Positions 22,977-39,621 of a stretch of DNA of 64,000 bases are shown in pieces (the stretch's first letter is position 1; each line of letters begins with the position of its first letter). This DNA comes from Candidatus Undinarchaeales archaeon. Lineage in GTDB: Archaea; SpSt-1190; JASMDC01. The stretch spans positions 63,107 through 127,106 of the forward strand of contig JASMDC010000007.1 in the NCBI GenBank assembly GCA_030753015.1, given 5' to 3'. Below the pieces are notes generated by a model. The model was not told the origin of the DNA. It did no database searches and saw only the letters and a list, made by a program, of their open reading frames with translations. The position numbers were made by a program, and so were the translations under genes.

Positions 22977-24842
22977 CTATCCCACGATCCGGCTGAAGTC
23001 CTTTTCGATGCGGGTGCGGGTGAGGCCGACGATGGTGGGCCTGCCGTGGGGGCAGTTCCATGGATGCTCGCAGCGCAGGAGCTTGCGTAGCAGGTCCTCC
23101 GCCTGGCCGGGCGTGAGGCGCTCGCCCGCCTTGATGGAACCGCGACAGGCCATGATCTTGAGGATGGCGTCCACCTGCGACTCCCGATGCTTGGGTTTCC
23201 CGAGCCGGAGGATGTCGTCGATGAGCGCACGCACCTGATCGGGACCGGTGGTCCTGCCGAGCACCACGGGCACGCGGCTCACCTGGAAGCTGTTCTTGCC
23301 GAAGGGCTCGATGGCCAGGCCGAGCCCGGCAAGCTCGTCCAGTCGGTCCTGCAGCAGCACCGCCTCCCGCGGTCCCAGCTCGAGCACCTGGGGTGACACC
23401 AGCTCCTGACCTCCAACGTCGCCATCGGCGTGCGACCGGACGAGCTCCTCGTACTTGGTGCGCTCGGCGGCCGCGTGGAGGTCGACCATCAGCAGCTCGT
23501 CCCGTCCCTGAAAGAGCAGGTAGGTATCGAACAGCTCTCCGATGTAGATGAGGCCTGCGAACCGTCCATCGAACCGCTCCTGCTGGGGCAGGTCCTCCAC
23601 GGGCGTGTCGGTCCGGCCCGACGGAGCTGTCTCCCGAGGCTTTGCCAACACCGCCTGGACCTGGCCGGGCCGCGTCCCGATATCGGTACCGACCGGAGCG
23701 CTCCTCGCAGCGGGCCTTGCTACTGGACGTGAGATGCCACGGGCCGCCCTGTCAGCGCCTACTGTCCCCGGTAATGGCTCCTGCTGTGTCGAGGGGGCCA
23801 GGGGGATCCCCGCTCCGGCAGCACGGAACACCGGCGCCCGCGCTGCGAGCGCGTCGGCCACGACGGCGGCTACGGCGTCGGACACCCTGGACGGATGGAC
23901 GAACCGCACCTCCCGCTTGGAAGGATGGACGTTCACGTCCACCTCGGCGGGGTCCACCTCGATGAAGAGCACGCCGGGCGGTACGTTCCTGCCCGGCGGA
24001 AGGGTGCCCCTGTATCCCTCGGACAGCGCACGGCGCAGGAGGGGCATGCGCACCGGCCGGCCGTTGACGAAAACGAAGGGGGGACGTGCGGGTGGTGCGG
24101 GGGCATCGGGGGGCACGATGAGGCCGTACGCACGCACCCCGTCCCGCTCATCGTCAACGGTCACCATGTGCCGGGCGACGTCCTTGCCCAGGACCGCCAT
24201 GGCGGCGGCCTCGAGCTCGCCGGACCCCGGCGTGAGCAGGAGGGTATGCCCTCCGTGCTCCAGGCTGAAGGATACGTCGGCGTTGGCCAGGGCGGCGGCG
24301 TTCACCACCTCGGTCACGTGACCCAGCTCGGTCGCCGTTGCGCGAAGGTGCTTTCGCCGGGCGGGCGTGTTGAAGAACAGTTCCCGCACCTCGACCTCGG
24401 TGCCCGTGGGGGCGGCTGTGGGCTGGACCGATACCGTCCGGCCCCCCTCCACACGTACCTCTGTCGCTCCCGCCAGCGGATCGCGGCAGGTGACCAGCCG
24501 CACGAGGGCGACCGAGGCGATGGAGGGCAGCGCCTCGCCCCTGAATCCCAGGGTGCCCAGTCCGCGCAGGTCGTCGATGGCGACGAGCTTGGACGTAGCG
24601 TGGCGTTCGAAGCACAGCTCGGCGTCCTCGGCGGTCATGGCGCGGCCGTCGTCGCGTACGGCCACCAGCTCCTTACCTCCGTCGGAGACGCGCACCTCGA
24701 TCCGGGTCGACCCGGCGTCCAGGGCGTTCTCCACCAGCTCCTTCACCACCGACGCTGGCCGCTCGACCACCTCGCCCGCAGCGATCTGGTTCGCCACGAC
24801 GTCAGAGAGCACTTGGATCTCAGTCATCGCCGCCACCACCAT
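22977..24842 (-). CDS. mutL: DNA mismatch repair endonuclease MutL
   Basis: IAAGEVVERPASVVKELVEN, GFRGEAL, DVNVHPSKREV, DLHAAAER, ACR, CPHGRP. Confidence 0.96.
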   Translation of the reverse strand: MVVAAMTEIQVLSDVVANQIAAGEVVERPASVVKELVENALDAGSTRIEVRVSDGGKELVAVRDDGRAMTAEDAELCFERHATSKLVAIDDLRGLGTLGFRGEALPSIASVALVRLVTCRDPLAGATEVRVEGGRTVSVQPTAAPTGTEVEVRELFFNTPARRKHLRATATELGHVTEVVNAAALANADVSFSLEHGGHTLLLTPGSGELEAAAMAVLGKDVARHMVTVDDERDGVRAYGLIVPPDAPAPPARPPFVFVNGRPVRMPLLRRALSEGYRGTLPPGRNVPPGVLFIEVDPAEVDVNVHPSKREVRFVHPSRVSDAVAAVVADALAARAPVFRAAGAGIPLAPSTQQEPLPGTVGADRAARGISRPVARPAARSAPVGTDIGTRPGQVQAVLAKPRETAPSGRTDTPVEDLPQQERFDGRFAGLIYIGELFDTYLLFQGRDELLMVDLHAAAERTKYEELVRSHADGDVGGQELVSPQVLELGPREAVLLQDRLDELAGLGLAIEPFGKNSFQVSRVPVVLGRTTGPDQVRALIDDILRLGKPKHRESQVDAILKIMACRGSIKAGERLTPGQAEDLLRKLLRCEHPWNCPHGRPTIVGLTRTRIEKDFSRIVG

Positions 24843-27507
24843 GTGCCCGACGCTTGAGCTCCTCGAGCTTGTTAAGCGCCTGGACGGGCGTTATCTCGTT
24901 GAGGTTGAGGTCGGACAGCTCGTCCAGGACCGTGGCGCCCCCGGTGAACTCAACAAGGGACGCCTGCTTGGGCCTGGGCTCCGGTTCCCCTACCGGCTCC
25001 GGCGGTGCACGGGGCGGGGGTCGCGCCAGCGGTCCGATGGCCAGGGCCTGACTTCCGGGGTGGTCCGGATCCTCCAGCGTTCCCAGCACCTCCCGGGCGC
25101 GGTCCAGCACATCGTCGGGGAACCCGGCCAGCTGGGCCACCTCGATACCGTAGGAGCGGTCCGCCGGTCCGTCGACGACCTTGCGCAGGAACACAAGCCG
25201 GCCCCCGTCGTCCTTGATGGCGATCGAGAGGTTGCGCAGCCCCGCCAGCTCGTCCTCGAGCACGGTCAGTTGGTGGTAGTGAGTGGCGAACAGGGTCTTG
25301 CACCCCTTCTCCGGGTGGGAGTGGAGGTACTCGGTCACCGCCCACGCGATGGCCAGGCCGTCGAACGTGCTCGTCCCGCGGCCGATCTCGTCCAAGAGCA
25401 CCAGGCTGCGCGACGAGGCGTTGTGAAGGATGTTGCTCGTCTCGTTCATCTCCACCATGAAAGTCGATTGGCCCGAGGCGAGGTCGTCGTGGGCCCCCAC
25501 GCGCGTGAAGATGCGGTCCACTACGCCGATGACGGCCTCCAGTGCCGGGACGAACGAACCCATCTGGGCCATGAGCACGACGAGCGCCACCTGACGAAGG
25601 TAGGTGGACTTACCGGCCATGTTGGGGCCGGTGATGAGCAGGAACCGGTTCTCGCCGCAGTCAAGGAGGGTGTCGTTGGGGATGAACCCGCCCCGACCGA
25701 TGGTGCGCTCCACCACCGGGTGTCTACCTGCGAGGACGCGGACACGGTCGCCGTCGTTCACCTGCGGTCGCTTGTAGCCGCGGTCGTGGGCGACCTGGGC
25801 GAGGCATGCAAGCACGTCGATACGGGCCAGCACCTGGGCGGCGTCCTGGATGTCGGCCGCTCGCTCAGCGACCTGTGAGCGTACCCGACAGAACAGCTCG
25901 TACTCCAGGGCCACGGACCGCTCTTCAGCGGTGAGCACCTTGGCCTCGTACTCCTTGAGCTCTTCCGTGATGAACCGCTCGGCGTTGGCCAGCGTCTGTT
26001 TGCGGATGTAGTTGTCGGGGACGAGCTCGAGGTTCGGACGGGTGACCTCTATGTAATAGCCGAACACCTTGTTGAATCCCACACGCATCGATCTGATGCC
26101 CGTGCGCTTGCGCTCCGTCTCCTGCATGGTGGCGATCCAGTCCTTGCCCGAGCGTGACAGCGACCGCAGTTCGTCCAGGTCGGAGTCGAACCCCTCGCGG
26201 ATGATACCCCCGTCCCTCACGGCGTTGGGAGGCGCGTCCACGATAGCGCGTGCGACAAGGTCTGCTATGTCGTCCAGATCGGGCAGTGCCTCTCCTGCCT
26301 CGACGAGGAGGGCGGCGTTCCTTCCGGCCAGCTGCTCCCTGATACTCGGGAGCGTCAGCAGCGAATCGCGCAGCGAGACGAGGTCCCGTGCGTTGGCGGT
26401 GCCGGACACGATGCGGGTGGCCAGACGCTCCAGGTCCGCCACTCCGCGGAACAGGTCGCGCAGGTCGTCGCGGACCAGCTGCTGCTCCACTAGCTCGCCC
26501 ACGGCGTCAAGACGACCTCCGATGGTGGCCACGTCGGTGAGCGGCCGCAGGAGCCACCGGCGCAGGAGCCGGCCGCCCATGGGCGTGGTGGTGTGGTCCA
26601 GCACCTCGAGGAGGGTGTTGGTGGTGTCGTTGGTGCGGATGCTGCGTACCAGTTCCAGGTTGCGGGAGGAGACGGCGTCGATGACCAGCACGTCGTCGGT
26701 CGAGTAGGGGTGGAGTGTGCGGATGTGCTCGCCGGTGCCCTTGAACGTCTCGCGGATGTACACCAGCGCAGCACCTGCCGAGGACACGGCCAGGCGCCTG
26801 TCCTCCAGCCCGAACCCGTCGAGGGTGAGCGTGCCGAAGTGATCGCGCACGATATCGTACGCTCGCTCGAACGCGAAGTGAGCGTCAGGGAACTCCGAGA
26901 GGCGCATCACCGACTGCACCCGGACCAGTCGGACGAACGCCTCGTCCTGCCGCAGCCACTCGGGGACCAGCACTTCGGCGGGCCCCAGGCGGACGAGCTC
27001 GGCGTTGAGCTCTACTGCCGCGTCGTCGCCATCGAACTGGGTGGCCATAAACTCGCCGGTGGAGATGTCGATGACCGCAAGACCGTAGGAACCGCCACCG
27101 GCGGACACGGAGGCCAGGAAGTTGTTCTCCTTCTCGTCGAGGAGGAAGCCCTCCATCAGCGTGCCGGGGGTGTAGACGCGGATAACACCGCGCTTGACCA
27201 GGCCCTTGGCCTTCTTGGGATCCTCCAGCTGCTCGCACACCGCCACCTTGTGCCCGGCCTTGAGCATCCGGCCGATGTAGTTGTCCAGCGCATGGTGGGG
27301 GAACCCGGCGAGCTTGGTCTCCTGTGGAGAGCCGCGGTTGCGGGAGGTGAGCACGATGTCGAGCGCCTTGCTGGTCTTGACGGCGTCCTCGCCGAAGGTC
27401 TCGAAGAAGTCACCCATCCGGAAGAAGAGCACGGCGTCAGGGTACTGCCGCTTCATTTCCCGGTACTGCCGGGTCATGGGCGTCTCCTTCTGCTTCGGTT
27501 TAGCCAG
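24820..27507 (-). CDS. mutS: DNA mismatch repair protein MutS (MutS1)
   Basis: FFRMGDFFETF, ITGPNMAGKSTYLRQ, STFMVEM, DEIGRGTS, FATHY, SYGIEVA; start probably CTG 27507 (ATG 27477 is an alternative). Confidence 0.96.
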   Translation of the reverse strand: MAKPKQKETPMTRQYREMKRQYPDAVLFFRMGDFFETFGEDAVKTSKALDIVLTSRNRGSPQETKLAGFPHHALDNYIGRMLKAGHKVAVCEQLEDPKKAKGLVKRGVIRVYTPGTLMEGFLLDEKENNFLASVSAGGGSYGLAVIDISTGEFMATQFDGDDAAVELNAELVRLGPAEVLVPEWLRQDEAFVRLVRVQSVMRLSEFPDAHFAFERAYDIVRDHFGTLTLDGFGLEDRRLAVSSAGAALVYIRETFKGTGEHIRTLHPYSTDDVLVIDAVSSRNLELVRSIRTNDTTNTLLEVLDHTTTPMGGRLLRRWLLRPLTDVATIGGRLDAVGELVEQQLVRDDLRDLFRGVADLERLATRIVSGTANARDLVSLRDSLLTLPSIREQLAGRNAALLVEAGEALPDLDDIADLVARAIVDAPPNAVRDGGIIREGFDSDLDELRSLSRSGKDWIATMQETERKRTGIRSMRVGFNKVFGYYIEVTRPNLELVPDNYIRKQTLANAERFITEELKEYEAKVLTAEERSVALEYELFCRVRSQVAERAADIQDAAQVLARIDVLACLAQVAHDRGYKRPQVNDGDRVRVLAGRHPVVERTIGRGGFIPNDTLLDCGENRFLLITGPNMAGKSTYLRQVALVVLMAQMGSFVPALEAVIGVVDRIFTRVGAHDDLASGQSTFMVEMNETSNILHNASSRSLVLLDEIGRGTSTFDGLAIAWAVTEYLHSHPEKGCKTLFATHYHQLTVLEDELAGLRNLSIAIKDDGGRLVFLRKVVDGPADRSYGIEVAQLAGFPDDVLDRAREVLGTLEDPDHPGSQALAIGPLARPPPRAPPEPVGEPEPRPKQASLVEFTGGATVLDELSDLNLNEITPVQALNKLEELKRRAHGGGGDD

Positions 27508-27567: not shown

Positions 27568-29541
27568 TCAGGCAGCGGCGGAGAGGTCGCAGCCCTCTGG
27601 CGGCACCACCCACAGCTCGGCGGTCATGGCATCGTAGTCGACACGGGTGTCGTTCCGGGCGATGAAGGTCACCCCGCCGATCTCCTTGCGAACCTCCATG
27701 GTGCCATTGGCGACCGACTCGTAGTCCACGCGGAAGAGGTGGGCGATGCCGTCGTTCGTCGTCGCCCGGAAGAAGGGGCAGCAGGGGTGGAAGGGCTCCG
27801 AGTCCCAGAGAAGGGTGAGGTTGCAGATGTTGAGTTTGGAGTCGAATGGGACAGCGATCTTTATAGCAGAGTCGGGTAGTGGTGAAGTGATGTTCTGTGG
27901 AATGTCGCAATCAGGTGGGATGATGATACGAAATCTATTTCTTTCTCCAGTGGATGCCGTGAAGTTGTCTGTGAAGACCCCTATTTCACCGACCTTTCTA
28001 CCCGAGAAAAGCCAAGAGGGCACGTATGGATATATTCTTTCTTCATACGGCTGCGCTTGAGCCAATCGTTTATCAGGATGGAATATGTGAATGTAATCAC
28101 TCATTGAAGCAGGTCCTCGGCTGATGAAATAATCGCACACATCGATTCCTTTGTCTTCATCGAGCATAAGTTCACTTATGTATGTTCCTGTCATCCTCCT
28201 GTCTAGGTCTTTTGATACTATGAAGAAGCACAAGTCTTTCTGCAGCCTGTCAGAGAGTTCGCTGCATCTCGTTCTGATATCGCGGATTTTCTGTGGGCCG
28301 GAGGAGGTATTCAGAAATTGAATAAGTTTATCGTTGATAAGGTCCAGACAATAATCCTGTTTTGTGAACTTCTTATCACAAAAAAGAACATCCTCTTTTT
28401 CTAGGGCAAACTCGATATAGCAGGATTCCCGTTTTGAATTATCAGAAAAGTGGATACAGAACTCATGCCCGTCAATCTTTGAAATAAATTCTATACAATC
28501 ATCAAATGATTTATTAGGCCTGATATACGAGGCCCTTGAGCAGTGCTCATATCCTGGAATAGAGCTGATGGCCTTCGTATAACACTCATGTTTTCTGATC
28601 AAGTCTACAACGGACTTACAGTTAGTGTAATCGTAGGTATTAATAGAATTCTTAATTATGCAAGAGTCCCTGTAACTGTCCATCCCATATAAATCATGGA
28701 CATATTCCAATGATTGGATATTGAGACAGATCGAAGGATCATCGAAAAAATGTTCATTAGAGATCGAAAAAATGCATTTATTACGAACATATATATCATT
28801 AATATCCATACAGTCATTCCAATCAAGTCTTCTTGTCACATAGAAGAAAAGGCACCAGTCTCGAATGCCTGAATCAGCTATTTCATTGCATGTTTGCAGC
28901 ACTGTGAATCCTTCGTTTGCAGCCAAGGAGAACGTTCTTTGATCATCACTATACTCAATCCAATTCTTACGTTTTTCAATGGAAGCTCGACTATCCATTA
29001 AATAAATATCAATTAATGCATGATAACAGAGCCGTCTAGCAAAGACATCTTGGGCAGAACGGCAGAGAGATGGATCGGGCCTGTTACGGAGGGCACAGAA
29101 AATGCAGGGGTATCCTCTGTGAAGGTCCCATTTATTCCTGATACCCAATCGGCATTGATCGATATCCCTTGTCTTCATGATGCGCATCCATGTTTCATCG
29201 TCATGTGGCCGCATCTGTTTTAATTCAATACATGGCCAAAAGTTAGTGTTGTTTTCCCGTTTCTCAAGAGCTTCACGACAATAATTACTCAGTTCTTTGA
29301 GACAACCCATTTGTGCACCCTTGAGTGACATGTCTCCAGTTGTGGTCTTATTATTATGACGATCGGTGGTATCATTCTGAATAATAGTGATTGTCTCATT
29401 CTCTACTGTGTTGTTCCCTTTCGATTCATTTTGATCTGGCGTGGTACAATTCAAGAAGAGAAACAGAAGTAATAGAACAGATAATCTTTTTACTTTTGAA
29501 TTACTGCTGCTATTTCCTACAGACACTTTTTGAGTTACCAT
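27568..29541 (-). CDS. Cys-rich secreted or lipoprotein-like hypothetical protein, mostly low-GC
   Basis: Long ORF; signal-like LSVLLLLFLFLNC; repeated C-x(2-3)-I...RDxC units. Confidence 0.7.
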   Translation of the reverse strand: MVTQKVSVGNSSSNSKVKRLSVLLLLFLFLNCTTPDQNESKGNNTVENETITIIQNDTTDRHNNKTTTGDMSLKGAQMGCLKELSNYCREALEKRENNTNFWPCIELKQMRPHDDETWMRIMKTRDIDQCRLGIRNKWDLHRGYPCIFCALRNRPDPSLCRSAQDVFARRLCYHALIDIYLMDSRASIEKRKNWIEYSDDQRTFSLAANEGFTVLQTCNEIADSGIRDWCLFFYVTRRLDWNDCMDINDIYVRNKCIFSISNEHFFDDPSICLNIQSLEYVHDLYGMDSYRDSCIIKNSINTYDYTNCKSVVDLIRKHECYTKAISSIPGYEHCSRASYIRPNKSFDDCIEFISKIDGHEFCIHFSDNSKRESCYIEFALEKEDVLFCDKKFTKQDYCLDLINDKLIQFLNTSSGPQKIRDIRTRCSELSDRLQKDLCFFIVSKDLDRRMTGTYISELMLDEDKGIDVCDYFISRGPASMSDYIHIFHPDKRLAQAQPYEERIYPYVPSWLFSGRKVGEIGVFTDNFTASTGERNRFRIIIPPDCDIPQNITSPLPDSAIKIAVPFDSKLNICNLTLLWDSEPFHPCCPFFRATTNDGIAHLFRVDYESVANGTMEVRKEIGGVTFIARNDTRVDYDAMTAELWVVPPEGCDLSAAA

Positions 29542-29579
29542 TTTCCTCTATGATTATTCTATTGGAGCTTGAACGTAAT

Positions 29580-31079
29580 CTATGTTACGGAAATCGTCTC
29601 GTTATCCATCGCCGCCTTCCTCCCTGCATCGTCCAGCAGCAGGTGCAGGTCGAGGTTGTACCCGCTGACCTGCGTGCAGTTAGGCAACTCGACGAAGAAC
29701 TCGAACGTACCGTTGTCCACCTCGGTGAGCTTGTCCTCCACTGTGCAGTTCCACGATTCGTTGGTCTCGTTGTTGGTGACGCATGTGCGATCGCCATAGA
29801 GCCACTTGTTGCAGGTTTCGTTGTCGTCGTCGCGCCGCAGTAGGAGCCGGACGAAGGTGGAGCTTGTAGCATTTGTGAGCGTGCCGTTTACGGTGTAGTT
29901 GAAGGGCACTGTGACGTTCATGGTGGAGTTGGGGATAGTGCTGTCGGTGATGTTCAGTTCCGCCGTGGTGTTCAGAGCGTCCGTCACGTTGAATTGGACA
30001 TCGGTCTGGTAGCTGGTCGAGCTGTAGCTGGCGTTCACCCTGAGGAGGTAGGTCTTCGACTCGTTCATCGGTGTTGTGAAGTTCTCCTCGTCGCGGAAGA
30101 ACCGGTCGTCGAAGTAGTGTAGGTCGTAGCCAGCAGTGGTGTTGTACCTCGTACCCGTAGTCGTGAAGTTGTAGTTTATGGAGCAGTCGGTGCCGTTCGA
30201 GTTGTTGCACTCGTAGACGCGCACATGGTCGACAGTGGTCTGGTTCCAGTAGATGTAGCCTCCCTGACTGTCCGCGAAGTAGAACGACCATGCCAGAGTG
30301 TCGTTGGCATCGGCAGAGTAGAGACCCCCCGAGATCGGATAGACGTGGCTGAATGTGTCATTGACACCGTACCCGAAGTGATCGATGTAGATGCCGGGCT
30401 TGAGGACCAGCGTCATGCTGAAGGTGTTCGTGGCGAGTTCAGTCACGTCCAGGAGCAGCTGGATCGTCACGTTGTACGTTCCTGTAGAGAAGTCTGTGGT
30501 GTCCCACTCGATGGATGAGTTGTAGGTCTGGTTCGCGTGTACGGTGACGTCAGTGGCGTTCAGGACGGTGCTGTTGTCATCCCCCGTGATGGTGACGTTG
30601 TGGACCAGGTTGGCGTAGGAGAAGTAGCCGTTCAGGCTCATCGTCGTGACGTTTATCACCGCATTGTGGTTCGCGTACTGCGGCGGATCGTATGTGGCCG
30701 ACACGTTGAGCTGTGTGAGGGACATGCGACGCTCGAATCCGAGCTCCGAGGTCCCGTTCGCGGTCAGGTTCACCCATATAGTCCCGGAGCCATAGGATGT
30801 CGCGGTGACGTTCCACGTCTGATTATAGGACGTGGTTGTCGGATCCAATGTGAAATTCAGGTCCGTTGCGTCCGTCGTGTTCAGGTCGTCGGAAAGCGTG
30901 AGGTTGCCGAGGAATGTGAGAGTCGTGTTCGCGGTGTTGTTGATGAAGAACGTCACGTTGAACGGATCGTTGACAACTCCTAAGGAGGGTGCCGTCAGGT
31001 TCACATCCACCGGGATGATGCTGAGCTGTACACTCTCTTTCAGCGTCGGATCGTTCTCCGAGTATGCCGTGATGTCGAT
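29580..31079 (-). pseudogene. 5'-truncated cell-surface glycoprotein (S-layer/Ig-like) fragment
   Basis: Very dense N-x-S/T sequons, beta-rich; frame open upstream of GTG 31010 to a TAG at ~31080 with no signal peptide. Confidence 0.6.
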
Positions 31080-31156
31080 CTACCATGTTCAGATATCGTG
31101 AAGATGTGTCGGAGAACGCATGACTGAACTCCATAAACCTTATATACTATTATTGC

Positions 31157-31181
31157 GTAAATAATCTAATCGGTTATTTAC
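31157..31181. promoter_or_regulatory. AbiEi operator-like inverted repeat GTAAATAA-N9-TTATTTAC downstream of TTATATA
   Basis: Perfect 8-bp inverted repeat directly before the TTG start; AbiEi autoregulation via IRs is established. Confidence 0.65.
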
Positions 31182-31970
31182 TTGAAACAAAATATTTCGC
31201 TTGGATCGAAGGAGGTCGAGCTCCTCTCGACACTGGAGCGTGAGCGACGGGACGTCTTCACTGTCGACGACGCGCGGTCGGTCCTCGCGGACACCTCGCA
31301 CCAGGTTGTCAGGAACCTGCTGTCGGGGCTCGCTGCCAAGGGCCGCGTCCAGAGGATCAAGCGGGGTGTCTACCTGCTCGTTCCCTTCAGGCATCGTGAC
31401 TGGGCCGTGCACGAGCTCTCGCTCGTACCGGTCCTCGCCCGTGACGCGTACGTCTCGTTCGGTTCAGCGCTGCGCTTCTGGGGGATGACCGCCCGCATCG
31501 GCACTGTCGTCACCGCGGCCGTCAGGAGACCTGTCCGGGAACGCGCGTTCCAGGGGACCTGGTACCGGTTCGTGGCACTGGCGGACAGGTTCTTCTTCGG
31601 GCACCGTGCCGTCATGCTCTCGGGAAGGTCCGTACGAGTGGCGACGAGGGAGAAGGCCGTGCTCGACTCACTGCTCCACCCCGAGCACTGCGGGGGCATC
31701 GGCGAGGTAGCACGTGTGGTGAGGGACCATGCAGGTGAGCTGGACTGGGCGCGGGTGGGGCGACACCTGCACAGGATGGACAGCAGCGCCGTAGAGAGGC
31801 GGCTCGCGTACATCCTCCACCACCTCGGACTGGGAGAGTTACTACCCGGAGTAGTCAAGAAAGGATATGATGGATACCGTCCACTCGATCCCCGGGGCCC
31901 GGCCGAAGGGCCGTACGACGGGAAGTTCGGTCTTCGGATCAACGTCGGGCTGGACGAGGTCATGTCATGA
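31182..31970 (+). CDS. abiEi: Type IV TA antitoxin AbiEi family
   Basis: wHTH with L..KG...RIKRGVY, YVSFGSAL..WG, FFGH, TREKAVLD. Confidence 0.88.
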   Translation: MKQNISLGSKEVELLSTLERERRDVFTVDDARSVLADTSHQVVRNLLSGLAAKGRVQRIKRGVYLLVPFRHRDWAVHELSLVPVLARDAYVSFGSALRFWGMTARIGTVVTAAVRRPVRERAFQGTWYRFVALADRFFFGHRAVMLSGRSVRVATREKAVLDSLLHPEHCGGIGEVARVVRDHAGELDWARVGRHLHRMDSSAVERRLAYILHHLGLGELLPGVVKKGYDGYRPLDPRGPAEGPYDGKFGLRINVGLDEVMS

Positions 31971-32761
31971 GCATCGGGAGCAGGGAGTCGCTTGTCGAGG
32001 CGGCGCGGCGGTATGGGATGAACCTCGGGAACGCCGAGAAGGATTACGTCCTGTCGGTCGCGCTCATCGGGCTCTCACGACTCCGTGAGGCCCGCGCCCT
32101 CGTCTTCAAGGGGGGTACATGCCTGAGGAAGGCGTACTTCGACGGCTACCGCTTCTCGTCGGACCTTGACTTTTCAGGAGAGATCGGTGACATCGAGGGG
32201 CTGAGGGGTGCGATCCATCGCGCGTTCGACGGCATAACACTGGAAAAGGTGCGGTTCACGAAGGTCAAGGACATGACCATGACGGGAAAGCAGGGGATGA
32301 CGCTGTCCCTCAAGTACCGGAGCCTCATCACTGACAGACCGCACACTAACAGCATACGGCTTGACATGAGCTTCGACAATCCACCGCTGATGCCGCCGGT
32401 CCGGAAATGGCTCACGCCCCCCGTCGAGTACGGCCTCGAGCTGTTGATGACCCGTGTCATGCCCCTCGCAGAGATACTCGCGGAGAAGGTCCATGCCATC
32501 TTCAAACGCTCGAAACCGAGAGACCTCTACGATATGTGGTTCCTGCTCTCGGGCGGGACCGGATTCGATCGGGAGCTGGTGGATAGGAAGCTCTTGGCAC
32601 TGGGAATCGTCTTCGAGAGGGGGGCGTTCGAGGATAGGCTAGTACTGCTTGGGACGGGGTGGGAGCGAGATATGCGGGATCTCATGGCGTCCTACCCTTC
32701 CTTCGAGGAAGTCAGGAACCAGACGCTCCGGATGCTGGCGGGGGAGGGATATTCCTCCTGA
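31967..32761 (+). CDS. abiEii: Type IV TA toxin AbiEii nucleotidyltransferase
   Basis: EKDY, VFKGGTCL, RFSSDLDF, EILAEK, RDLYD. Confidence 0.92.
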   Translation: MSIGSRESLVEAARRYGMNLGNAEKDYVLSVALIGLSRLREARALVFKGGTCLRKAYFDGYRFSSDLDFSGEIGDIEGLRGAIHRAFDGITLEKVRFTKVKDMTMTGKQGMTLSLKYRSLITDRPHTNSIRLDMSFDNPPLMPPVRKWLTPPVEYGLELLMTRVMPLAEILAEKVHAIFKRSKPRDLYDMWFLLSGGTGFDRELVDRKLLALGIVFERGAFEDRLVLLGTGWERDMRDLMASYPSFEEVRNQTLRMLAGEGYSS

Positions 32762-32843
32762 TGGCGTCCAGCAAGACCTGTACGTGCGCCCCCCCCGCCG
32801 ATACATCCTCGATAGAACCATGCAGTGAGGCCGCGCACTTAAT

Positions 32844-32858
32844 CCAGAAGGTTTAAAA
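32844..32858 (+). promoter_or_regulatory. BRE-TATA promoter (CCAGAAGG TTTAAAA) for the repeat RNA
   Basis: Canonical archaeal BRE+TATA with no credible protein start downstream. Confidence 0.7.
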
Positions 32859-32871
32859 TTCAATCCACTAT

Positions 32872-33980
32872 AGCGGTGAGTCCGGCCTTTCGCTAGGCGC
32901 CCTTCGGGGCGAACCGGCGAGGAGTCGCGGGTCGTCCGGCGTGTGTTTCGATGTGTGCTGGGCGGCGCGGCAGAGGGGCCCTGATGCGCAAGCTGACGGG
33001 CGCTGATGTCGCTGCAAGGGATGCCTGAAAGGGTGCCGGCAACGGCGCTTGGGATGGTATGTCTGGCACCGACCCCGGGCCGCTTGGCGGCGCTTCGGCG
33101 CTGGCGGGTGGTGCGGCCGACAACCGCTGTGGCGCAAGCCGCGGAGGTGCGACGGTCGCGGCGAGGGGTGCTTGAATGGGTGCCGGTGACGGTGCCCGTG
33201 AAGGCGGTCCTGGTCCCGCGGGCCGCCCGGTGGCGCTTCGGCGCTGGTGGGCGGGTTGGCCTGAAAAGAACCGGGGCGCAAGTCTCGGGGAACGGATGGC
33301 CGCGGCAGTGGACGCCCGTGTGGCGCTGGCAACGGCGTTGCGTACGGTGGTGCTGCTCTCGGGATCCGACGGGTCGTCCGGTGGCGCTTCGGCGCTGTGG
33401 GGCGGCGTGATCGGCGGTGAACCGCGGCGCGAGCCGTGGGGAACGGTCGGTCGCTGCGAGGGATGCCCGCAAGGGCGGCTGGCAACGGTCGTTCGGAGGA
33501 CGTTTCTGGTACCGGCTCCGGTCCGGCCGGTCGGCGCTTCGGCGTCGGTTGGGAGGTGCGGCCCGTTGCTCCGTGGCGCAAGTCGCGGGGAAGGGTGGGC
33601 CGTGGCGGGGCGTGTCCGAAGGGGTGCCGGCAACGGTGCTCGGGAGGACGTGTCGCGTATCGGGGACCCGGTGGGTTGTTGGATCAGCGTGGAAGCGAAG
33701 GTACAGCGACGCGGCCTGAAAAGAACCGGGGCGTACGTTCCGGGGAACGGGAGGTCGCGGCGAGGATGCCCGAAGGGTGCCGGAAACGGTGTCTGGGTGT
33801 GCATCCCCGCTCCCGAGGCCCGGCAGGGCTGTCCGGCGGCGTTTCGGCGTCGCGGGGCGGAGCGGTCAAGAACCGAACGCGGCTCCGGTCGCGGACGGGG
33901 AAGGGCCGTTGCAGGGACGCCTGAAGAGGTGCCGGCAACGGTGCCACAGAAGGCGCCCCTGTGTCCCAACCTTTCTTTCC
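32872..33980 (+). ncRNA. Candidate long structured ncRNA of seven diverged ~149-nt tandem multi-hairpin units
   Basis: UUCG loops at 32903, 32947, 33094, 33237, 33388, 33538, 33843; GNRA hairpins at 33039, 33186, 33329, 33482, 33630, 33783, 33935; compensatory and G-U pairs on the + strand; own promoter and U-rich end. Confidence 0.75.
33970..33980 (+). terminator. U-rich archaeal terminator-like tract
   Basis: CCTTTCTTTCC directly after the last hairpin CACAG..CTGTG. Confidence 0.45.
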
Positions 33981-34055
33981 GATGCTACTTACGACTGAGG
34001 GGGCTGTAATTCGCTGCCGAAACCCTCATAAACCTCTCTTGTCCATACATCGACG

Positions 34056-34391
34056 ATGCCCTTCCGCCCCAAGCTCCTGAAGGCCGGCATCTGCCCTGAC
34101 TGCGGCGGCGACCTGCTGCTCGTGGGATTCGGCGACGTCAGGAAATTGCGCTGCGAGAAGTGCGGGAAGGATGTGGAAGAGCGCACGGTCCCCGACGACC
34201 GGGATAAGGAGATCGCCGTCATCGACGTGGAGGAGATGGCAAAGAAGATGGGCACGCTCAAGATACGCTGCCGCAACTGCGGTCGTGTCGGTGTGATGAC
34301 CTGGCAGCTCCAGACCCGGCGCCCCGACGAGCCGCCGACACAGTTCTACAAGTGCCTGCGTTGCGGACGTGCATGGAAAGAGTCGCGTTAG
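34056..34391 (+). CDS. Transcription factor S / RpoM-like double zinc-ribbon protein
   Basis: CPDCG..CEKCG; CRNCG..QTRRPDEPPTQFYKCLRCG with acidic DE hairpin. Confidence 0.88.
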   Translation: MPFRPKLLKAGICPDCGGDLLLVGFGDVRKLRCEKCGKDVEERTVPDDRDKEIAVIDVEEMAKKMGTLKIRCRNCGRVGVMTWQLQTRRPDEPPTQFYKCLRCGRAWKESR

Positions 34392-34414
34392 CTTCCAGCG
34401 GCCTTCATCATGCC

Positions 34415-35005
34415 TTAGGGATGGAATTTATGCTTCTTCCAATGCCCGTGGCGGAACTTGTGCTTCTTCCAATGCCTGTGATGCCGCCGGCGCTTTCTGC
34501 CACAGGGATTTCGCCCCTTGAAAGTGGGCTTGGCGGACGGAGCGGCATCGATCCCTGCTTTGGGCGGGCTCACGATGACCGTGCGCTTCACACCGTCCAC
34601 GCCCAAGAGCTCATAGATCGTGGACGGGCCCATCCTGGATGACGAAAGGACGATACCGGGTAGCCCTGGATTTACCGGTGCCGGAGCGTCGAAGACGTGA
34701 TCGGTCTCCGGTCCATCGTCGGAATCCGTGTCAGCGGACTGCACCGGTGGGGGGTCATCGGTGATGACCATCGCGGCGGGCTCGCCCGCATTCTCCTCCT
34801 TAGGCTTCTCGACGAGCACCAGCAGTGGTCTATCGGTGACGGCCTCTTCCTCTACGGCAGTCTCCTCCACGATGAAGAGACTCAGACCGTTGCCCTGGCC
34901 CGAACCCCAGTCCTCCGTCCAGAATGCCTGGCCGGACGCAAGGACGACCCCCAAGACCGTTAGTAAGACTGTAGCTAATATGATATAACTTGACCTCAAT
35001 CTCAC
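34415..35005 (-). CDS. Hypothetical secreted/membrane protein with acidic linker and His/Lys-rich tail
   Basis: Signal-like N-terminus; tail RHHRHWKKHKFRHGHWKKHKFHP. Confidence 0.6.
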   Translation of the reverse strand: MRLRSSYIILATVLLTVLGVVLASGQAFWTEDWGSGQGNGLSLFIVEETAVEEEAVTDRPLLVLVEKPKEENAGEPAAMVITDDPPPVQSADTDSDDGPETDHVFDAPAPVNPGLPGIVLSSSRMGPSTIYELLGVDGVKRTVIVSPPKAGIDAAPSAKPTFKGRNPCGRKRRRHHRHWKKHKFRHGHWKKHKFHP

Positions 35006-35135
35006 GCACCTCGTTACTCTCGCTCCTACTAGAATACTAGGCGTCCCAGGTATATAACGATTGTTATCACAATCGTTATGGGACCCGGATAGGATCAACT
35101 CTCGCGTACGCTCGTCGGTGGACCCGCGACCGTGC

Positions 35136-35471
35136 TCACAGCATAGCAAGGGCTATGAAAATGACTAGCAGCGGCAGCCAGAGCGGCAGGAGGGCGAGCC
35201 CTAGAACGACCGAGGACTCCAGAAAGAGGAAGGGGAACACCAGCTTCGTCCCGCTGAACATCCGCGTGGGCTTGTGGAGCTGCATCCCCAAGAAGTAGAC
35301 GATGATGTAGTAGTTGAGCACGAACCCGGGCACGGTGAACGAGTCGGAGGCCGGCAGCCCCGGCATCTGGGTGTACTCCTCAACGGAGCGGAACCCGTCG
35401 TACTCGGGCTGGTGGAGCTCGTACGTCCCGCCCTGCTCGCCCTGTGTGTACAGCACCATGTCCTTGTTCAC
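35136..35471 (-). CDS. Small membrane protein, last gene of the AIM24 operon
   Basis: Coupled by GTGA overlap; two hydrophobic segments. Confidence 0.65.
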   Translation of the reverse strand: MNKDMVLYTQGEQGGTYELHQPEYDGFRSVEEYTQMPGLPASDSFTVPGFVLNYYIIVYFLGMQLHKPTRMFSGTKLVFPFLFLESSVVLGLALLPLWLPLLVIFIALAML

Positions 35472-36100
35472 CCCTTCATCGACTGGATGCCCACGTACCC
35501 CGGCCCCGTGACCTGGAGCAGGAAGAGCCCCTCGCCACCGATGATGATGTTCTCGAGGCCGTGGACTCTGACCAGCTCCAGCTCGACGCTGTGGTCCTTG
35601 AACACCAGGTACCCCTGGTCGATCATCATGGTCTGGCCCTGCTCGAGGCGCGTGATGACGTAGTCACCGTGGACGTGCATGAACACCTTCCCCGGTCCCG
35701 TGAGGTTCTGGAAGATGAGGTTGTCGCGGGCGAAGCTGGCCATGCCGATGAGCCTGATAAGGCTGTGGGACGCCAGGGAGATGGAGAACTGCACTGTAGG
35801 TTCCATGGCCAGGAAGCCCGAGTGGGCGATGTCGATGGCCTGGCCGGGCTGGAGGTCGAGCTCCTTGATCATCCCTGGCTTGCCGGCGGCGATGGCGACG
35901 GTGCCCGGACCTTCGTACTTGTCCAGTGCCGCTGACTCGCCGGTGAACAGACGTGAGAAGAACCCCATCCCCAGAACGGCGTCGGAGTGGATGTCGGGCG
36001 TTTCGTACAGCATGGCTCCGCGCTCGCACACGATGGTCTCGCCCTGGTAGAGGTCGACCTCCATGACGGGTGCGAAATGGCCTATGATACGTGTCTCCAT
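35468..36100 (-). CDS. AIM24 (DUF124/TIGR00266-like) family protein
   Basis: ERGAML, TGES, GPG, GGEGLF motifs. Confidence 0.85.
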   Translation of the reverse strand: METRIIGHFAPVMEVDLYQGETIVCERGAMLYETPDIHSDAVLGMGFFSRLFTGESAALDKYEGPGTVAIAAGKPGMIKELDLQPGQAIDIAHSGFLAMEPTVQFSISLASHSLIRLIGMASFARDNLIFQNLTGPGKVFMHVHGDYVITRLEQGQTMMIDQGYLVFKDHSVELELVRVHGLENIIIGGEGLFLLQVTGPGYVGIQSMKG

Positions 36101-36104
36101 CCCA

Positions 36105-36737
36105 TCACCACCCCGTGCTCTGGACGCCCACCTTGCCGGGGCCCGTGGCGGTGAGGAGGAAGAGCCCCTCGCCCCCGATGAACACCTTGCGCAGCCCCTT
36201 GATCCTGGTGAGGTCCACATCGACCGATGGGTCCTTGTAGGCCATGTAGCCCTGGTCGAGGTCCATCTTCTGTCCTTGTGCCAGGGTGACCTCGACAAGG
36301 TCCCCCTTCACCACGACGAACACCCTTCCGGGTCCGGTGAGCTTCTGATAGAAGAATCCCTGGCCACCGAAGAGGAACCTCCAGGGGAGGATGCCCTTCC
36401 ACACCCGCTCGATGCCGTACGAGAGGGTGATGTCGCCGGCCATGAACGCGCCTTTGCACACGTCGACGGACTGCCCCGGGCCCAGGTCGAGCTCCCTTAT
36501 CATCCCGGGAGAGGAGGCCGAGAGGCCGATGACGCCCGGACCGGTGTACTTGTTCACGGCGATGGTCTCGCCCGTCAGCCACTTCTTGATAGCGGCGAAC
36601 AGGCCGCCCACCATGCTCTCCATATGTGTGGAGGAGGATGCGTAGATCATGGCCCCTGCCTCGCACATGATGGTCTCGCCCTCGTTGAGCTGGACCTCGA
36701 GGATGGGCGTGTATCCGCCGATCTTGCGGATGTTCAA
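36105..36737 (-). CDS. AIM24 family protein
   Basis: EAGAMIY, TGE, GGQGFF, GGEGLF..GPGKV. Confidence 0.85.
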   Translation of the reverse strand: MNIRKIGGYTPILEVQLNEGETIMCEAGAMIYASSSTHMESMVGGLFAAIKKWLTGETIAVNKYTGPGVIGLSASSPGMIRELDLGPGQSVDVCKGAFMAGDITLSYGIERVWKGILPWRFLFGGQGFFYQKLTGPGRVFVVVKGDLVEVTLAQGQKMDLDQGYMAYKDPSVDVDLTRIKGLRKVFIGGEGLFLLTATGPGKVGVQSTGW

Positions 36738-37444
36738 ATCAGCCTCAACCTCCTGGCCCGTGAATAGGGGATGGACCGTCCCATGATGAACATGCTCTTG
36801 ATGGAGTGGATGCCCACGTAGCCGGGCCCCTCCAGCTCGAAGAGGAAGAATCCCTCACCGCCGAGCAGGCCCTTCTTCAGGGTGTCGAATATCCCCTCAC
36901 CCACCTTGCGCAGGGTGACGGCAACGGTGCTGTCCTTGAACAGGAAATGCTTCTCGTCCATCACGAGCTTCTCACCGGGCTGGAGGTACTTGATAACGCA
37001 GTCGCCGGGGACGTGGATGAACACCGTTCCAGGGCCCTGGATCTTCTCCAGCACCAGTCCGACACCCGACAGTCCGACCAGGATCTTGTTGACGATCCCG
37101 CCGCCCAGGAGCTCAGTGACCCATTCGATCGAGAGGTTGACGGTGTTCTCCGCCGCGAGGAACGCGGCTTTGCTCACGTCCAGTTTCTGGCCGCCCTCGA
37201 GCGTGACGTAACGCACATCGCCGGGCGAGGACTTGGACATGCCCAGGGTACCGGGTCCCGTGTAGAGGTTGAGGGCCACGGTCTCGCCCGAGGCGGCGCG
37301 GCCGAACAGGCCCTTCACGCTGGCCTCGAACTCCATGTCGTGGTCCTTGTAGATCATGGCCCCGCCCTCGCAGTAGACGGATTCCCCTACTTCGAGCGTT
37401 GCCTCAAGTATGGGGATGAACCCTCCCATGACCTTGAAGTTCAC
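36734..37444 (-). CDS. AIM24 family protein
   Basis: EGGAMIY, SGE, GGEGFF..GPG; GTG start at 37444. Confidence 0.85.
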   Translation of the reverse strand: MNFKVMGGFIPILEATLEVGESVYCEGGAMIYKDHDMEFEASVKGLFGRAASGETVALNLYTGPGTLGMSKSSPGDVRYVTLEGGQKLDVSKAAFLAAENTVNLSIEWVTELLGGGIVNKILVGLSGVGLVLEKIQGPGTVFIHVPGDCVIKYLQPGEKLVMDEKHFLFKDSTVAVTLRKVGEGIFDTLKKGLLGGEGFFLFELEGPGYVGIHSIKSMFIMGRSIPYSRARRLRLI

Positions 37445-37513
37445 TGAAACCCTCCCCGTTGTGCTCTCTAATGGCTGGCAATTGATATAAAGGAAACGCT
37501 CAAGGATGGTGCC

Positions 37514-38950
37514 ATGCGCGTGCGGGTCATCGCGGCCTACCTGGGGGCCGTGCTGCGCATCGTCGGTGCCACGCTCCTCGTCCCCGCCCTGATGGGGGCG
37601 GCGGCGGGCGAGCCATGGTACACCGTCTCGGCACATATCGTAGCTGCGGTCCTGGCCCTGCTGTGCTGGACCGTGTCCCGGCACCTCGTGATCGAGGCCC
37701 CCACGGTCCAGGAGGCTATGGCCGTGTGCACCCTCTCGTGGGTGGTGGTCTCGGGCGTGGGGGCCATCCCGTTCTACCTGGTCGGGCACATGACCCCTCT
37801 AGACGCGTACTTCGAGGCCGTCTCGGGATTCACGACCACGGGCATAACCATGGTGGCCGATCCCGCCGCCCTTCCTGCAAGCCTCCTGCTGTGGCGTGCG
37901 CTCACCCAGTGGCTGGGGGGGCTTGGGATCCTCACCTTCTTCCTGGCGGTGGTGGTCCCCGGCTCGTCGGCGGCGTTCCAGCTCTTTGCCGCAGAGACAC
38001 ACAAGGTGGATGCCGGGCGCCTGCGCCCCGGGCTGATCTCGTCGATCCAGGGGCTGTGGTGGGTGTACGTGGGGCTCACCGTGGCCGCGGCGGTCACGTT
38101 CGCTGCGCTCGGGATGGATCCCTTCGACGCACTGGCCCACGCGCTGACATGCCTCTCCACAGGCGGCTACTCGACCCGGGCAGCAAGCATCGCCGCGTAC
38201 CCCGCCGCCGTGGTGCCGGCCATCATCCTCTTCATGGCCCTAGGCGGAGTGAACTTCGCCATAATTCACCTGGCGCTCACCAAGGACCTGCGCCGGGCCC
38301 TGGGCAACTACGAGCTGAAGGCCTACGTCCTCATCATCGTGCTCACCACGCTCCTGGTGTGGAGCGACCTGCGCTGGCATACCGCACCCACCGGCACCGA
38401 GGGCTCGGAGGCCGCCTTCCAGGTGGTGTCCGTACTCACGTCAACGGGCTTCGCCACCCGGGACATCGGGACGTTCCCGGCGGTGTCGCGCGTGGTGTTC
38501 CTCGTGCTCATGGTCATTGGCGGGTGCGTGGGCTCCACTGGCGGCGGGCTCAAGGTGGCCCGGTTCGTGCTCCTGCTCAAGCTCGCCCGACGCGAGCTGT
38601 ACCGCCTGCGCATCCCCCGACGGGCGGTGGCGCCCGTGGTGGTAGCAGAGAAACCCGTGCCCGAGTCCGCACTCACCCGCATCGCCGGTATGTTCGTGCT
38701 CTACCTGGCACTGCTGCTGGTCGGTACCCTGGTAACCCTGGCGTTCCACGGGGACATGGGGCCCTTCGAGGCGGCCAGCGGGATGTTCTCGGCGCTGGGC
38801 AACATCGGGCCCTGGTACGTGCCTGCGGGCACGCAGCTCCACGCCGCCGTCAAGCTAACCTATATATTTGGTATGCTCGCAGGTAGGCTTGAGATCCTGC
38901 CGCTCCTGGTCCTGGCCGATCCCAAGACCTGGAAAGGCTTCCCAAGGTGA
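37514..38950 (+). CDS. trkH: TrkH potassium uptake membrane subunit
   Basis: FEAVSGFTTTG, QWLGGLG, STGG, GSTGGGLK, GNIGP, GRLEI. Confidence 0.95.
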   Translation: MRVRVIAAYLGAVLRIVGATLLVPALMGAAAGEPWYTVSAHIVAAVLALLCWTVSRHLVIEAPTVQEAMAVCTLSWVVVSGVGAIPFYLVGHMTPLDAYFEAVSGFTTTGITMVADPAALPASLLLWRALTQWLGGLGILTFFLAVVVPGSSAAFQLFAAETHKVDAGRLRPGLISSIQGLWWVYVGLTVAAAVTFAALGMDPFDALAHALTCLSTGGYSTRAASIAAYPAAVVPAIILFMALGGVNFAIIHLALTKDLRRALGNYELKAYVLIIVLTTLLVWSDLRWHTAPTGTEGSEAAFQVVSVLTSTGFATRDIGTFPAVSRVVFLVLMVIGGCVGSTGGGLKVARFVLLLKLARRELYRLRIPRRAVAPVVVAEKPVPESALTRIAGMFVLYLALLLVGTLVTLAFHGDMGPFEAASGMFSALGNIGPWYVPAGTQLHAAVKLTYIFGMLAGRLEILPLLVLADPKTWKGFPR

Positions 38951-38958
38951 ACTGAACC

Positions 38959-39621
38959 ATGCACGTCATCATCGTCGGGGCGGGGCTGCTGGGCCGTAAG
39001 CTGGCCAAAGGGCTCGCCGAGAACGGCCACGACGTCGTCGTGGTCGAGGAGGATCACCAGCAGTGCGAGGACGTGCGCGCCGAGTCGGGCGCCCTGGTCA
39101 TCAACGGCTCGCCCGAGCGGCCTGCCGTGCTGGAGGAAGCGGGTATCGACCGTGCCGATACCCTCGTTGCCGTCCTGCCCAAGGACCTGGAGAACGTGGC
39201 CGTGTGCGTCATCGGCAAACGCTACAAGGTCCCCAAGATAGTCGCCAAGATCGTGGATCCCGATTATGACGAGGTGTTCCGGCTGGCGGGCGCCCACCAC
39301 GTCGAGGGATGGGCCGACATCCTCTACAACGAGATGATGCTTGAGATCGAGGAGCCCACCGTCCGCAGGGTGGCGAGCCTGGCCAGAGGTGAGGCCGAGC
39401 TCCTGATAGTCAAGGTGCCCGAGGGCTCGTCCATCACTGGGAAGAGCGTGTCCGAGCTGGCCGCCCAGGACGACTTCCCCGAGGGCTTCCTGTTCGTAGC
39501 GGTCATCCGCGAGGGGAAGGTCATCATCACACACGGCAAGACGAAGATCCAGGCAGGCGACGACGTTGTCGTGGTCGCCACGGCGGAGGACGTACCGCGG
39601 ATCGGGAAGCTGGTGGGGTAG
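38959..39621 (+). CDS. trkA: TrkA NAD-binding regulatory subunit
   Basis: IIVGAGLLG RCK_N plus RCK_C domain. Confidence 0.92.
   Translation: MHVIIVGAGLLGRKLAKGLAENGHDVVVVEEDHQQCEDVRAESGALVINGSPERPAVLEEAGIDRADTLVAVLPKDLENVAVCVIGKRYKVPKIVAKIVDPDYDEVFRLAGAHHVEGWADILYNEMMLEIEEPTVRRVASLARGEAELLIVKVPEGSSITGKSVSELAAQDDFPEGFLFVAVIREGKVIITHGKTKIQAGDDVVVVATAEDVPRIGKLVG

Follow-up and report, generated by a model that had tools for sequence, protein, structure and literature searches.

Several kinds of repetitive or exceptionally large structured RNAs are known in cellular organisms, and they provide the natural background for the locus described here. Protein-sponge RNAs of the CsrB/RsmZ type are, as generally described, bacterial transcripts with their own promoter and terminator, in which a short hairpin exposing GGA in the loop is repeated many times, in numbers that differ between species, so that a single molecule acts as a multivalent decoy for CsrA. 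The antitoxin RNAs of type III toxin-antitoxin systems (ToxI, CptI; PMC4627078) consist of tandem direct repeats located between a promoter and a terminator, with some read-through into the downstream open reading frame; these repeats appear to be 34-45 nt long, nearly identical and cut by the toxin. The large ornate bacterial RNAs, namely, OLE, GOLLD, ROOL and raiA, exceed 500 nt, are highly structured, and represent single complex multi-junction folds that multimerise between molecules (10.1101/2024.12.08.627333). Repeated structured domains are also found in tandem riboswitch aptamers and in ribozyme-bearing tandem repeats, whereas eukaryotic repeat-unit lncRNAs such as NORAD appear to contain diverged repeat units, each with a protein site plus a hairpin, that soak up an RNA-binding protein.

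Here, we analyzed a window of 64,000 nt (contig JASMDC010000007.1 of assembly GCA_030753015.1; all coordinates refer to this window) from an uncultured marine archaeon and characterized a locus of about 1.1 kb that consists of seven diverged copies of one three-hairpin module. As in the CsrB/RsmZ-type RNAs, many repeats of one module appear to be carried by a single independent transcript, and the number of repeats differs between species; however, the modules are about 149 nt long, their hairpins are capped by UUCG, GGAA, GNRA, UCCG or GUAC, and CsrA (PF02599) was found in neither of the two genomes carrying the locus (the control scored in 3 of 14 named genomes). The layout of promoter, tandem repeats, T-rich tract and downstream open reading frame resembles that of type III antitoxin loci, but only architecturally: the units are 141-155 nt long and 49-67% identical to one another within the genome, the downstream gene encodes a TFIIS-type zinc-ribbon protein, and no ToxN-family protein (PF13958) was found in either genome, although that search produced no hit in any control genome. 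In contrast to the OLE, GOLLD, ROOL and raiA RNAs, to none of which we detected an Rfam match, the supported base pairs form only local hairpins, repeated within one molecule. No aptamer or self-cleaving ribozyme model scored even at E = 10, the modules lack a multi-helix junction that could form a pocket, and seven copies appear to be far more than known tandem aptamers have. The resemblance to NORAD is an analogy only, without any sequence relation. Unlike in CRISPR arrays, the whole 149-nt period is homologous from unit to unit, with no alternation of conserved repeats and variable spacers.

Anatomy of the locus

The array of seven tandem units spans positions 32923-33962 (+). The aligned units start at 32926, 33071, 33214, 33365, 33515, 33668 and 33820, that is, with spacings of 145, 143, 151, 150, 153 and 152 nt, and show a mean column identity of 71%; repeat families fall at the same spacing, whereas Tandem Repeats Finder does not detect the array because it is too diverged. 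Our covariance model scores all seven at 107-121 bits, against 21 bits for the next best place in the 3.85-Mb genome: unit 1 at 32923-33068 (106.9 bits), unit 2 at 33069-33215 (119.6 bits), unit 3 at 33216-33356 (117.3 bits), unit 4 at 33357-33511 (120.6 bits), unit 5 at 33512-33658 (112.5 bits), unit 6 at 33659-33810 (120.5 bits) and unit 7 at 33811-33962 (111.9 bits). Among about 450 archaeal genomes, this model found the locus only in one congener (hereafter G001), which has five units. Unit 3 lies inside a 296-nt segment that G001 lacks, and the 5′ part of unit 4 is missing as well, so that the 3′ end of unit 4 is joined to unit 2, with the breakpoint in the conserved apical P3 hairpin.

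Each unit is predicted to fold into three hairpins. P1 is a stem of about 14 bp capped by UUCG (GGAA in unit 6), and P2 comprises 7 bp, a purine-rich internal loop and another 7 bp, mostly with a GNRA cap (UCCG in unit 7); the sequences quoted for these two parts in the preliminary description are exact, including every hairpin listed there. That description went on to posit two abutting short hairpins followed by a variable stem-loop, and this part requires revision. The small first hairpin is compatible with the sequences (95.8% of cells paired), but the same bases, together with most of the supposed variable stem-loop, also form one long hairpin, P3, with a basal stem, a roughly 4x4 GAAR/GNGA loop and an apical stem of 8-10 bp with a GNRA cap (GAAA in unit 6). 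P3 is the minimum-energy fold in 12 of 12 units of the two species and shows its own C-G to U-A swap; in unit 7, a C-G to U-A swap in the apical P3 is seen between the two species. What remains as linker is 7-18 nt, usually ending in GGG.

The array is preceded by a predicted archaeal promoter, a BRE-like purine stretch plus TATA box at 32844-32859 (TTTAAAAT; 32844-32858 reads ccagaaggtttaaaa). The block from about 32824 to 32859 is conserved in G001 although the DNA upstream of it is unrelated; promoter function is inferred from the consensus. A second AT-rich element at 32867-32875 (ACTATAGCG), identical in both species, could be an alternative TATA or part of the initially transcribed region. 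The 5′ leader (32880-32922) contains a CGCCC-UUCG-GGGCG hairpin (32898-32911), with a UCCG loop in G001, enclosed by a longer predicted outer stem in which, by inspection, a C-G to G-C swap distinguishes the two species. The 3′ tail (33963-33985) includes a T-rich tract, CCTTTCTTTCC (33970-33980), which is the likely terminator, and 33950-33987 is identical in both species. Downstream, at 34056-34391 (+), lies a second TFS-type (TFIIS zinc-ribbon) gene (PF01096, E = 4.8e-15), which occupies the same position in G001; a better-scoring TFS gene is located elsewhere in both genomes. By contrast, the AbiE pair upstream of the locus is absent from G001.

Strand, selection and transcription

The core of the preliminary description, that this is a new structured long ncRNA on the + strand whose units keep structure rather than sequence, is supported by several lines of evidence. 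The minimum free energy is -639.8 kcal/mol on the + strand and -424.8 kcal/mol on the - strand, with folding z-scores of -5.61 (0 of 20 shuffles fold as well) and +2.17 (20 of 20 shuffles fold as well), respectively. Of the 466 stem cells, 112 (24%) are G-U and 2 are A-C, confirming that mismatches resolve as G-U only on the + strand. Overall, 92.3% of cells are paired, against 38.6-52.4% when partners are slid by 1-3 columns, and 12 of 39 pairs show changes on both sides, compared to a shuffle mean of 7.0, with 1 of 500 shuffles reaching 12. All 12 units give the same three hairpins when each segment is folded alone. The 12 units are, however, paralogues plus close orthologues rather than independent samples, and the tested structure was derived from the same alignment, which inflates these covariation controls. 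Of 39 base pairs that differ between orthologous units of the two species, 30 keep a standard pair on the + strand, but only 3 would on the - strand.

Although the modules have drifted apart from one another, each is kept nearly unchanged between the two species (95% identity for units 5 and 6). In total, 736 of 807 aligned RNA positions are identical (91.2%), whereas at four-fold sites of the flanking genes, identity is 140 of 223 (62.8%) for mutS and 38 of 52 (73%) for the TFS paralogue. Sequence is most conserved in the apical P3 hairpin and the GNRA caps, beyond what pairing needs.

Contigs from RNA libraries cover the locus in 4 of 4 metatranscriptome runs examined, from four studies. A contig from one of these runs (X12) spans 32896-33971 (1,076 nt) without differences, and two contigs from another (X15) cover 32896-33970. 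In neither study is there a loose end at 32896, whereas the X12 contig carries a loose end at 33971, with 19 unexplained A/G-rich letters. Matching contig ends are only a weak hint, and the start at 32896, about 25 nt after the second AT-rich element, does not fit the start at about 32880 predicted from the main TATA. Furthermore, the contigs do not show the strand, which is assigned from folding and G-U asymmetry, and DNA carried over into RNA libraries cannot be formally excluded. No RNA contig lay on 30500-32895 in any of the four runs, and 34203-36500 had no cover except for low-depth pieces in run X19.

None of the 4,227 Rfam 15 families matched anywhere in the window at gathering thresholds; with permissive filters on 32700-34100, the only match was ybhL, at 20.8 bits against a cut-off of 50 (E = 1.2), which we regard as noise, whereas the archaeal SRP RNA model finds its gene in the same genome at 149 bits. 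No tRNA or tmRNA was found. Further pattern searches led nowhere: a non-exhaustive scan of genome contigs for the P3 motif in three successive units, which did not return the record of the window itself, gave none scoring above 21.8 bits among the loci tested with the model; a stricter P1+P2+P3 pattern, of a kind that finds only close relatives, gave a single chance match of 16 bits inside bacterial coding DNA among metagenome contigs and 0 hits among viral contigs. There was also no indication of rRNA or SRP mimicry: comparison with the rRNA operon of G001 (no rRNA genes were found in the genome studied here) and with the SRP RNA gave only chance matches of 14 nt or less, with E of 0.25 or more. 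Other 1-kb windows of the genome with strong G/C skew are coding and have no Rfam family, so that no second RNA of this kind was found that way.

Possible functions and rival explanations

Taken together, these observations indicate a gene for a structured non-coding RNA of about 1.08-1.09 kb (probability about 0.9). How this RNA acts is far less certain. We tentatively propose, with a probability of about 0.4, that it is a stable, trans-acting, multivalent platform, in which each module would offer the same binding surface, most plausibly the near-invariant apical P3 hairpin, to a protein that recognises a capped hairpin or its purine-rich loop, so that one molecule would sequester or organise 5-7 copies, as a sponge or scaffold, with valency changing by unequal recombination between modules. 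Indeed, there are no covarying long-range helices, and the congener works with five modules after losing two by a crossover inside P3, so that no fixed global fold needs all seven. However, no binding partner is identified, CsrA was not found in either genome (any partner would be of another kind), and, given that UUCG and GNRA caps and G-C-rich stems are generic stabilising elements, the high conservation may reflect stability or tertiary contacts rather than a protein site.

Alternatively, although this appears unlikely, the array could be a precursor cut at the linkers into active RNAs of about 150 nt or into single hairpins, a design known from CRISPR arrays and type III antitoxin RNAs (PMC4627078) and compatible with head-to-tail units separated by short variable linkers. 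However, a single contig runs through all six module junctions, internal contig ends (33049, 33110, 33135, 33147 and 33883) do not fall at module borders, the divergence of the units means that the products would be seven different RNAs, and no known self-cleaving ribozyme was detected; contigs drop rare forms, so that partial processing cannot be excluded. Still less probable is a cis-linked element of the downstream TFS paralogue, be it a giant structured leader whose terminator read-through sets expression of that gene or a type III toxin-antitoxin-like pair in which the repeat RNA neutralises the protein. The order of promoter, repeats, T-tract and gene is conserved in both species, the T-tract is short, one contig (run X18) runs from unit 2 to 34202, inside the TFS gene, and this gene is present beside a canonical one; a TFS paralogue of Sulfolobus probably inhibits RNA polymerase. 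By contrast, contigs from two studies end before the gene, a conserved TATA-like CATAAAC about 25 nt before the ATG suggests, by inspection, that the gene has its own leaderless promoter, the paralogue keeps the acidic D-E pair of active TFS, and both the size and the divergence of the repeats, as well as the failure to find ToxN in a search that had no positive control, argue against a type III system.

A comparably doubtful possibility is an architectural RNA, in which the modules dock on one another through GNRA loops and helical or purine-rich receptors to build a compact RNA-only body, a single-chain counterpart of the homo-oligomeric ROOL and GOLLD assemblies (10.1101/2024.12.08.627333). 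The 13 GNRA caps and 14 purine-rich internal loops in one 1.1-kb chain and its very high stability are in line with this scenario, but a closed symmetric body would not easily tolerate a module number of 7 in one species and 5 in the other, and neither long-range covarying pairs nor, by eye, an 11-nt receptor motif was seen. Least likely of all, the locus would not be an RNA gene but a protein-coding repeat on the antisense strand or a DNA-level array of binding sites. An antisense open reading frame of 358 aa spans the array, and one of 277 aa does so in G001, yet all three antisense frames are open for 237-358 aa, as expected at 69-72% G+C, 0 of 6 open reading frames tested have a Pfam family, and the unit spacings, as well as the 296-nt and 1-nt differences between the species, shift the frame. 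Furthermore, substitutions preserve RNA pairs that exist only on the + strand, and only one DNA-level inverted repeat is found at the tested settings, despite about 21 RNA hairpins. More speculatively, the RNA might represent a new class of large archaeal RNAs that work as covalently linked multimers of independent docking units, with valency (5-7) set by unequal recombination, the chain either folding on itself into an RNA-only body or titrating a component of the transcription machinery next to whose gene it is always found (the TFS paralogue or RNA polymerase); the latter case would be an archaeal functional analogue of 6S or CsrB-type global regulators, but we consider this reading as a whole improbable on the present evidence.

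Large structured RNAs of unknown function appear to be rare, and the few bacterial classes appear to have each opened new biology, whereas we are not aware of a comparable class in Archaea and found none in the literature searched. The locus described here, although known from one genus only, displays a design that, to our knowledge, has not been described before, namely, seven old, diverged copies of one module in one chain, each held by selection. Its 12 paralogous and orthologous units form a built-in comparative data set that already supports a secondary structure, and the presence of the corresponding contigs in marine, seawater and hydrothermal-vent metatranscriptomes means that the RNA can be studied without a culture. 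If it is a protein sponge or scaffold, it would be, as far as we know, the first CsrB-like regulator in Archaea; if it self-assembles, it would link tandem duplication to RNA quaternary structure.

Seven tandem units and their folding

Between positions 32923 and 33962, the + strand carries seven head-to-tail units, as proposed in the preliminary description. The unit starts initially used are spaced 145, 143, 151, 150, 153, and 152 nt apart, with a mean column identity of 71%, and gapless repeat families fall at the same spacing, whereas Tandem Repeats Finder misses the array because the copies are too diverged. A covariance model, denoted R1, which we built from the seven units together with the five units of a congener, scores the twelve units at 106-123 bits, whereas the next best place in either genome scores 21 bits (E = 0.38). 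The array is preceded by the BRE/TATA stretch noted in the preliminary description and by a CGCCC-UUCG-GGGCG hairpin, and is followed by CCTTTCTTTCC.

Several lines of evidence indicate that the array is an RNA read from the + strand. The + strand of 32870-33990 folds to -639.8 kcal/mol and the - strand to -424.8 kcal/mol. For 32896-33890, comparison with dinucleotide shuffles gives z = -5.61 for the + strand (0 of 20 shuffles fold as well) and z = +2.17 for the - strand (20 of 20 fold as well). In the consensus stems, 112 of 466 cells are G-U and 2 are A-C, and at the DNA level, only one inverted repeat is found at the tested settings. The region has a G+C content of 70-73%, with a G over C skew of +0.21 to +0.24, in a 60.3% G+C genome, and ranks sixth for G+C and third for skew among all 1-kb windows; the other strongly skewed windows are coding. 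The most G+C-rich kilobases of the genome (up to 75%) lie on the same contig at 45000-56000, 7-18 kb before the start of the window (contig C95 of G000, the genome containing the window). Long ORFs overlap the array, including an antisense one of 358 aa, but all three antisense frames are open for 237-358 aa, and 0 of 6 ORFs have a Pfam family. Furthermore, the unit spacings and the differences between the two species (296 nt and 1 nt) shift the frame. No tRNA or tmRNA is present.

RNAalifold analysis of the 12 units yields three local hairpins per unit. Counted on the MAFFT alignment, 92.3% of the cells pair, compared with a shuffle mean of 87.0 +/- 0.8, and 0 of 500 shuffles reach the observed value; when the partners are slid by 1-3 columns, 38.6-52.4% pair. 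Changes on both sides are observed in 12 of 39 pairs (shuffle mean, 7.0; 1 of 500 shuffles reaches 12). These figures should be considered with caution, given that the structure was derived from the same alignment and that the rows are paralogs plus close orthologs. Folding each segment of each unit alone gives the same hairpin in 12 of 12 cases for P1, P2, and P3. P1 is about 14 bp long and is capped by UUCG, or by GGAA in unit 6. P2 consists of a 7-bp stem, a purine-rich internal loop, and another 7-bp stem, with GCAA caps four times and GCGA, GUAC, and UCCG once each. P3 comprises a basal stem, a roughly 4x4 GAAR/GNGA loop, and an 8-10 bp apical stem, capped by GCAA five times and by GUGA and GAAA once each. 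The basal stem of P3 reaches into what the preliminary description had called a variable stem-loop, and the small first hairpin proposed there within a pair of abutting hairpins is also compatible with the sequences (95.8% paired). The long P3 uses the same bases, is the minimum-energy form everywhere, and shows its own C-G to U-A swap (alignment A2, columns 104/138). We favor the long P3, although a switch between the two forms cannot be excluded. The linkers are 7-18 nt long. The full-length minimum-energy fold also draws pairs between different units, but these are expected for any repeat and have no covariation support.

Conservation between two species and presence in RNA libraries

Among 41 relatives searched by BLAST, only one congener, G001, has the locus, sharing the promoter block, leader hairpin, tail, and downstream gene but carrying five units. 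The alignment shows that G001 lacks 296 nt: its second unit begins as unit 2 and ends as unit 4, with the junction in the conserved apical P3 hairpin. Units 3 and 4 are no closer to any other unit than 57-64%, so they are old. Thus, it can be inferred that two units were, most likely, lost in G001 by unequal crossover. Orthologous units are 87-95% identical, against 49-67% for the paralogous units of G000, and over 807 aligned positions, the RNA is 91.2% identical. By contrast, identity at four-fold degenerate sites is 140 of 223 (62.8%) in the first 1,203 nt of mutS and 38 of 52 (73%) in the TFS paralog. Among the five orthologous unit pairs, one of which is the hybrid, 39 base pairs changed; in 30 of these, both states are standard pairs on the + strand, whereas only 3 would be on the - strand. 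The outer stem of the leader shows a C-G to G-C swap.

The stretch is represented in 20 public runs from 10 studies, labeled as marine, seawater, or hydrothermal-vent metagenomes; 11 DNA rows may be the source of this assembly. Seven runs from four studies are metatranscriptomes containing 62-84% of the sampled words. Because all runs are kept as contigs, they do not show strand, level, or true ends. Contigs of four RNA runs were compared with 30500-36500. In run X12, one contig covers 32896-33971 without a difference; this 1,095-nt contig carries 19 A/G-rich letters after 33971 that do not match the genome and could be a non-templated tail, a chimera, or an adapter. In run X15, contigs cover 32896-33135 and 33110-33970; in run X19, a contig covers 33049-33883; and in run X18, a contig covers 33147-34202, running into the next gene. 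Two studies share the start at 32896, with no loose end there, and have ends one base apart, whereas DNA runs contain the flanks, which is a weak hint of real ends. The main TATA predicts a start near 32880. The observed 32896 may be a processed end, result from loss of coverage at the 5′ end, or reflect use of a second conserved AT-rich element (ACTATAGCG) at 32867-32875, which lies between the TATA box and the leader, about 25 nt before the shared contig start.

Distribution and genomic context

Rfam 15 gives nothing at gathering thresholds in the window and only noise at E up to 10, whereas the same library finds the SRP RNA of this genome. R1 detected the RNA only in G000 and G001 in searches of the 17 genomes of its phylum, 151 genomes sampling 109 archaeal genera, and 151 genomes of each of two other phyla; given that the larger searches used stricter filters and are samples, the RNA can only be said not to have been found in those searched. 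Pattern scans of public genomes, metagenomes, and viral contigs gave only chance matches or nothing, and literature searches and a term search within one 2026 preprint on intergenic arrays turned up nothing similar. Notably, the genus has genomes of 3.6-3.8 Mb at 60% G+C, yet is placed in a 17-species phylum whose other members have 0.6-1.2 Mb. G000 has 5% estimated contamination and no rRNA genes, and the placement looks odd.

In G001, the RNA gene lies directly beside mutS, in divergent orientation. By contrast, in the window, mutS (24820-27477) is separated from the RNA promoter by a stretch of about 5.3 kb (27568-32761), absent from the congener, which is partly low in G+C (37-41% at 28000-29500) and holds two ORFs of 657 and 476 aa with no Pfam or PADLOC family, together with an AbiEi/AbiEii pair. 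Thus, the defense genes are probably a later insertion rather than partners of the RNA. Each of the two genomes has two TFIIS-ribbon (TFS-type) genes (in G000, 34056-34391 in the window and 2905-3021 of contig C30). In both species, the lower-scoring paralog follows the RNA gene and keeps the acidic, catalytic D-E pair, whereas a canonical TFS lies elsewhere. Further along the window, a 30-nt tandem repeat (1.9 copies, 89% matches) at 34423-34480 lies inside a 244-aa minus-strand ORF (34415-35149) that has no Pfam or PADLOC family, and two neighboring AIM24-family genes on the minus strand (35468-36298 and 36734-37789) are followed by a TrkH/TrkA potassium-uptake pair (37514-39621).

Possible modes of action

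The conserved, structured, + strand-type RNA gene is found in RNA libraries, but how the RNA acts can only be inferred. Given that all supported helices are local, that five modules suffice in a sister species, and that the apical P3 hairpin is nearly invariant, we tentatively favor a trans-acting multivalent platform that binds several copies of one partner (probability of about 0.4). A precursor that is processed into smaller RNAs is possible but unlikely, a cis-linked element of the TFS paralog or a self-docking architectural RNA appears more doubtful still, and it is very improbable that the array is not an RNA gene; these alternatives do not exhaust the possibilities. CsrA was not found in either genome, and there is no sequence mimicry of rRNA or SRP RNA.

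As interpreted here, the RNA would work most like the bacterial CsrB/RsmZ sponges, and it is laid out like type III antitoxin repeats. By the defining criteria tested, however, it qualifies as neither of these, nor as one of the ornate large RNAs. Although its known range is narrow, comprising a single genus, and any function remains hypothetical, we consider it to be a new RNA class with an architecture not described before.
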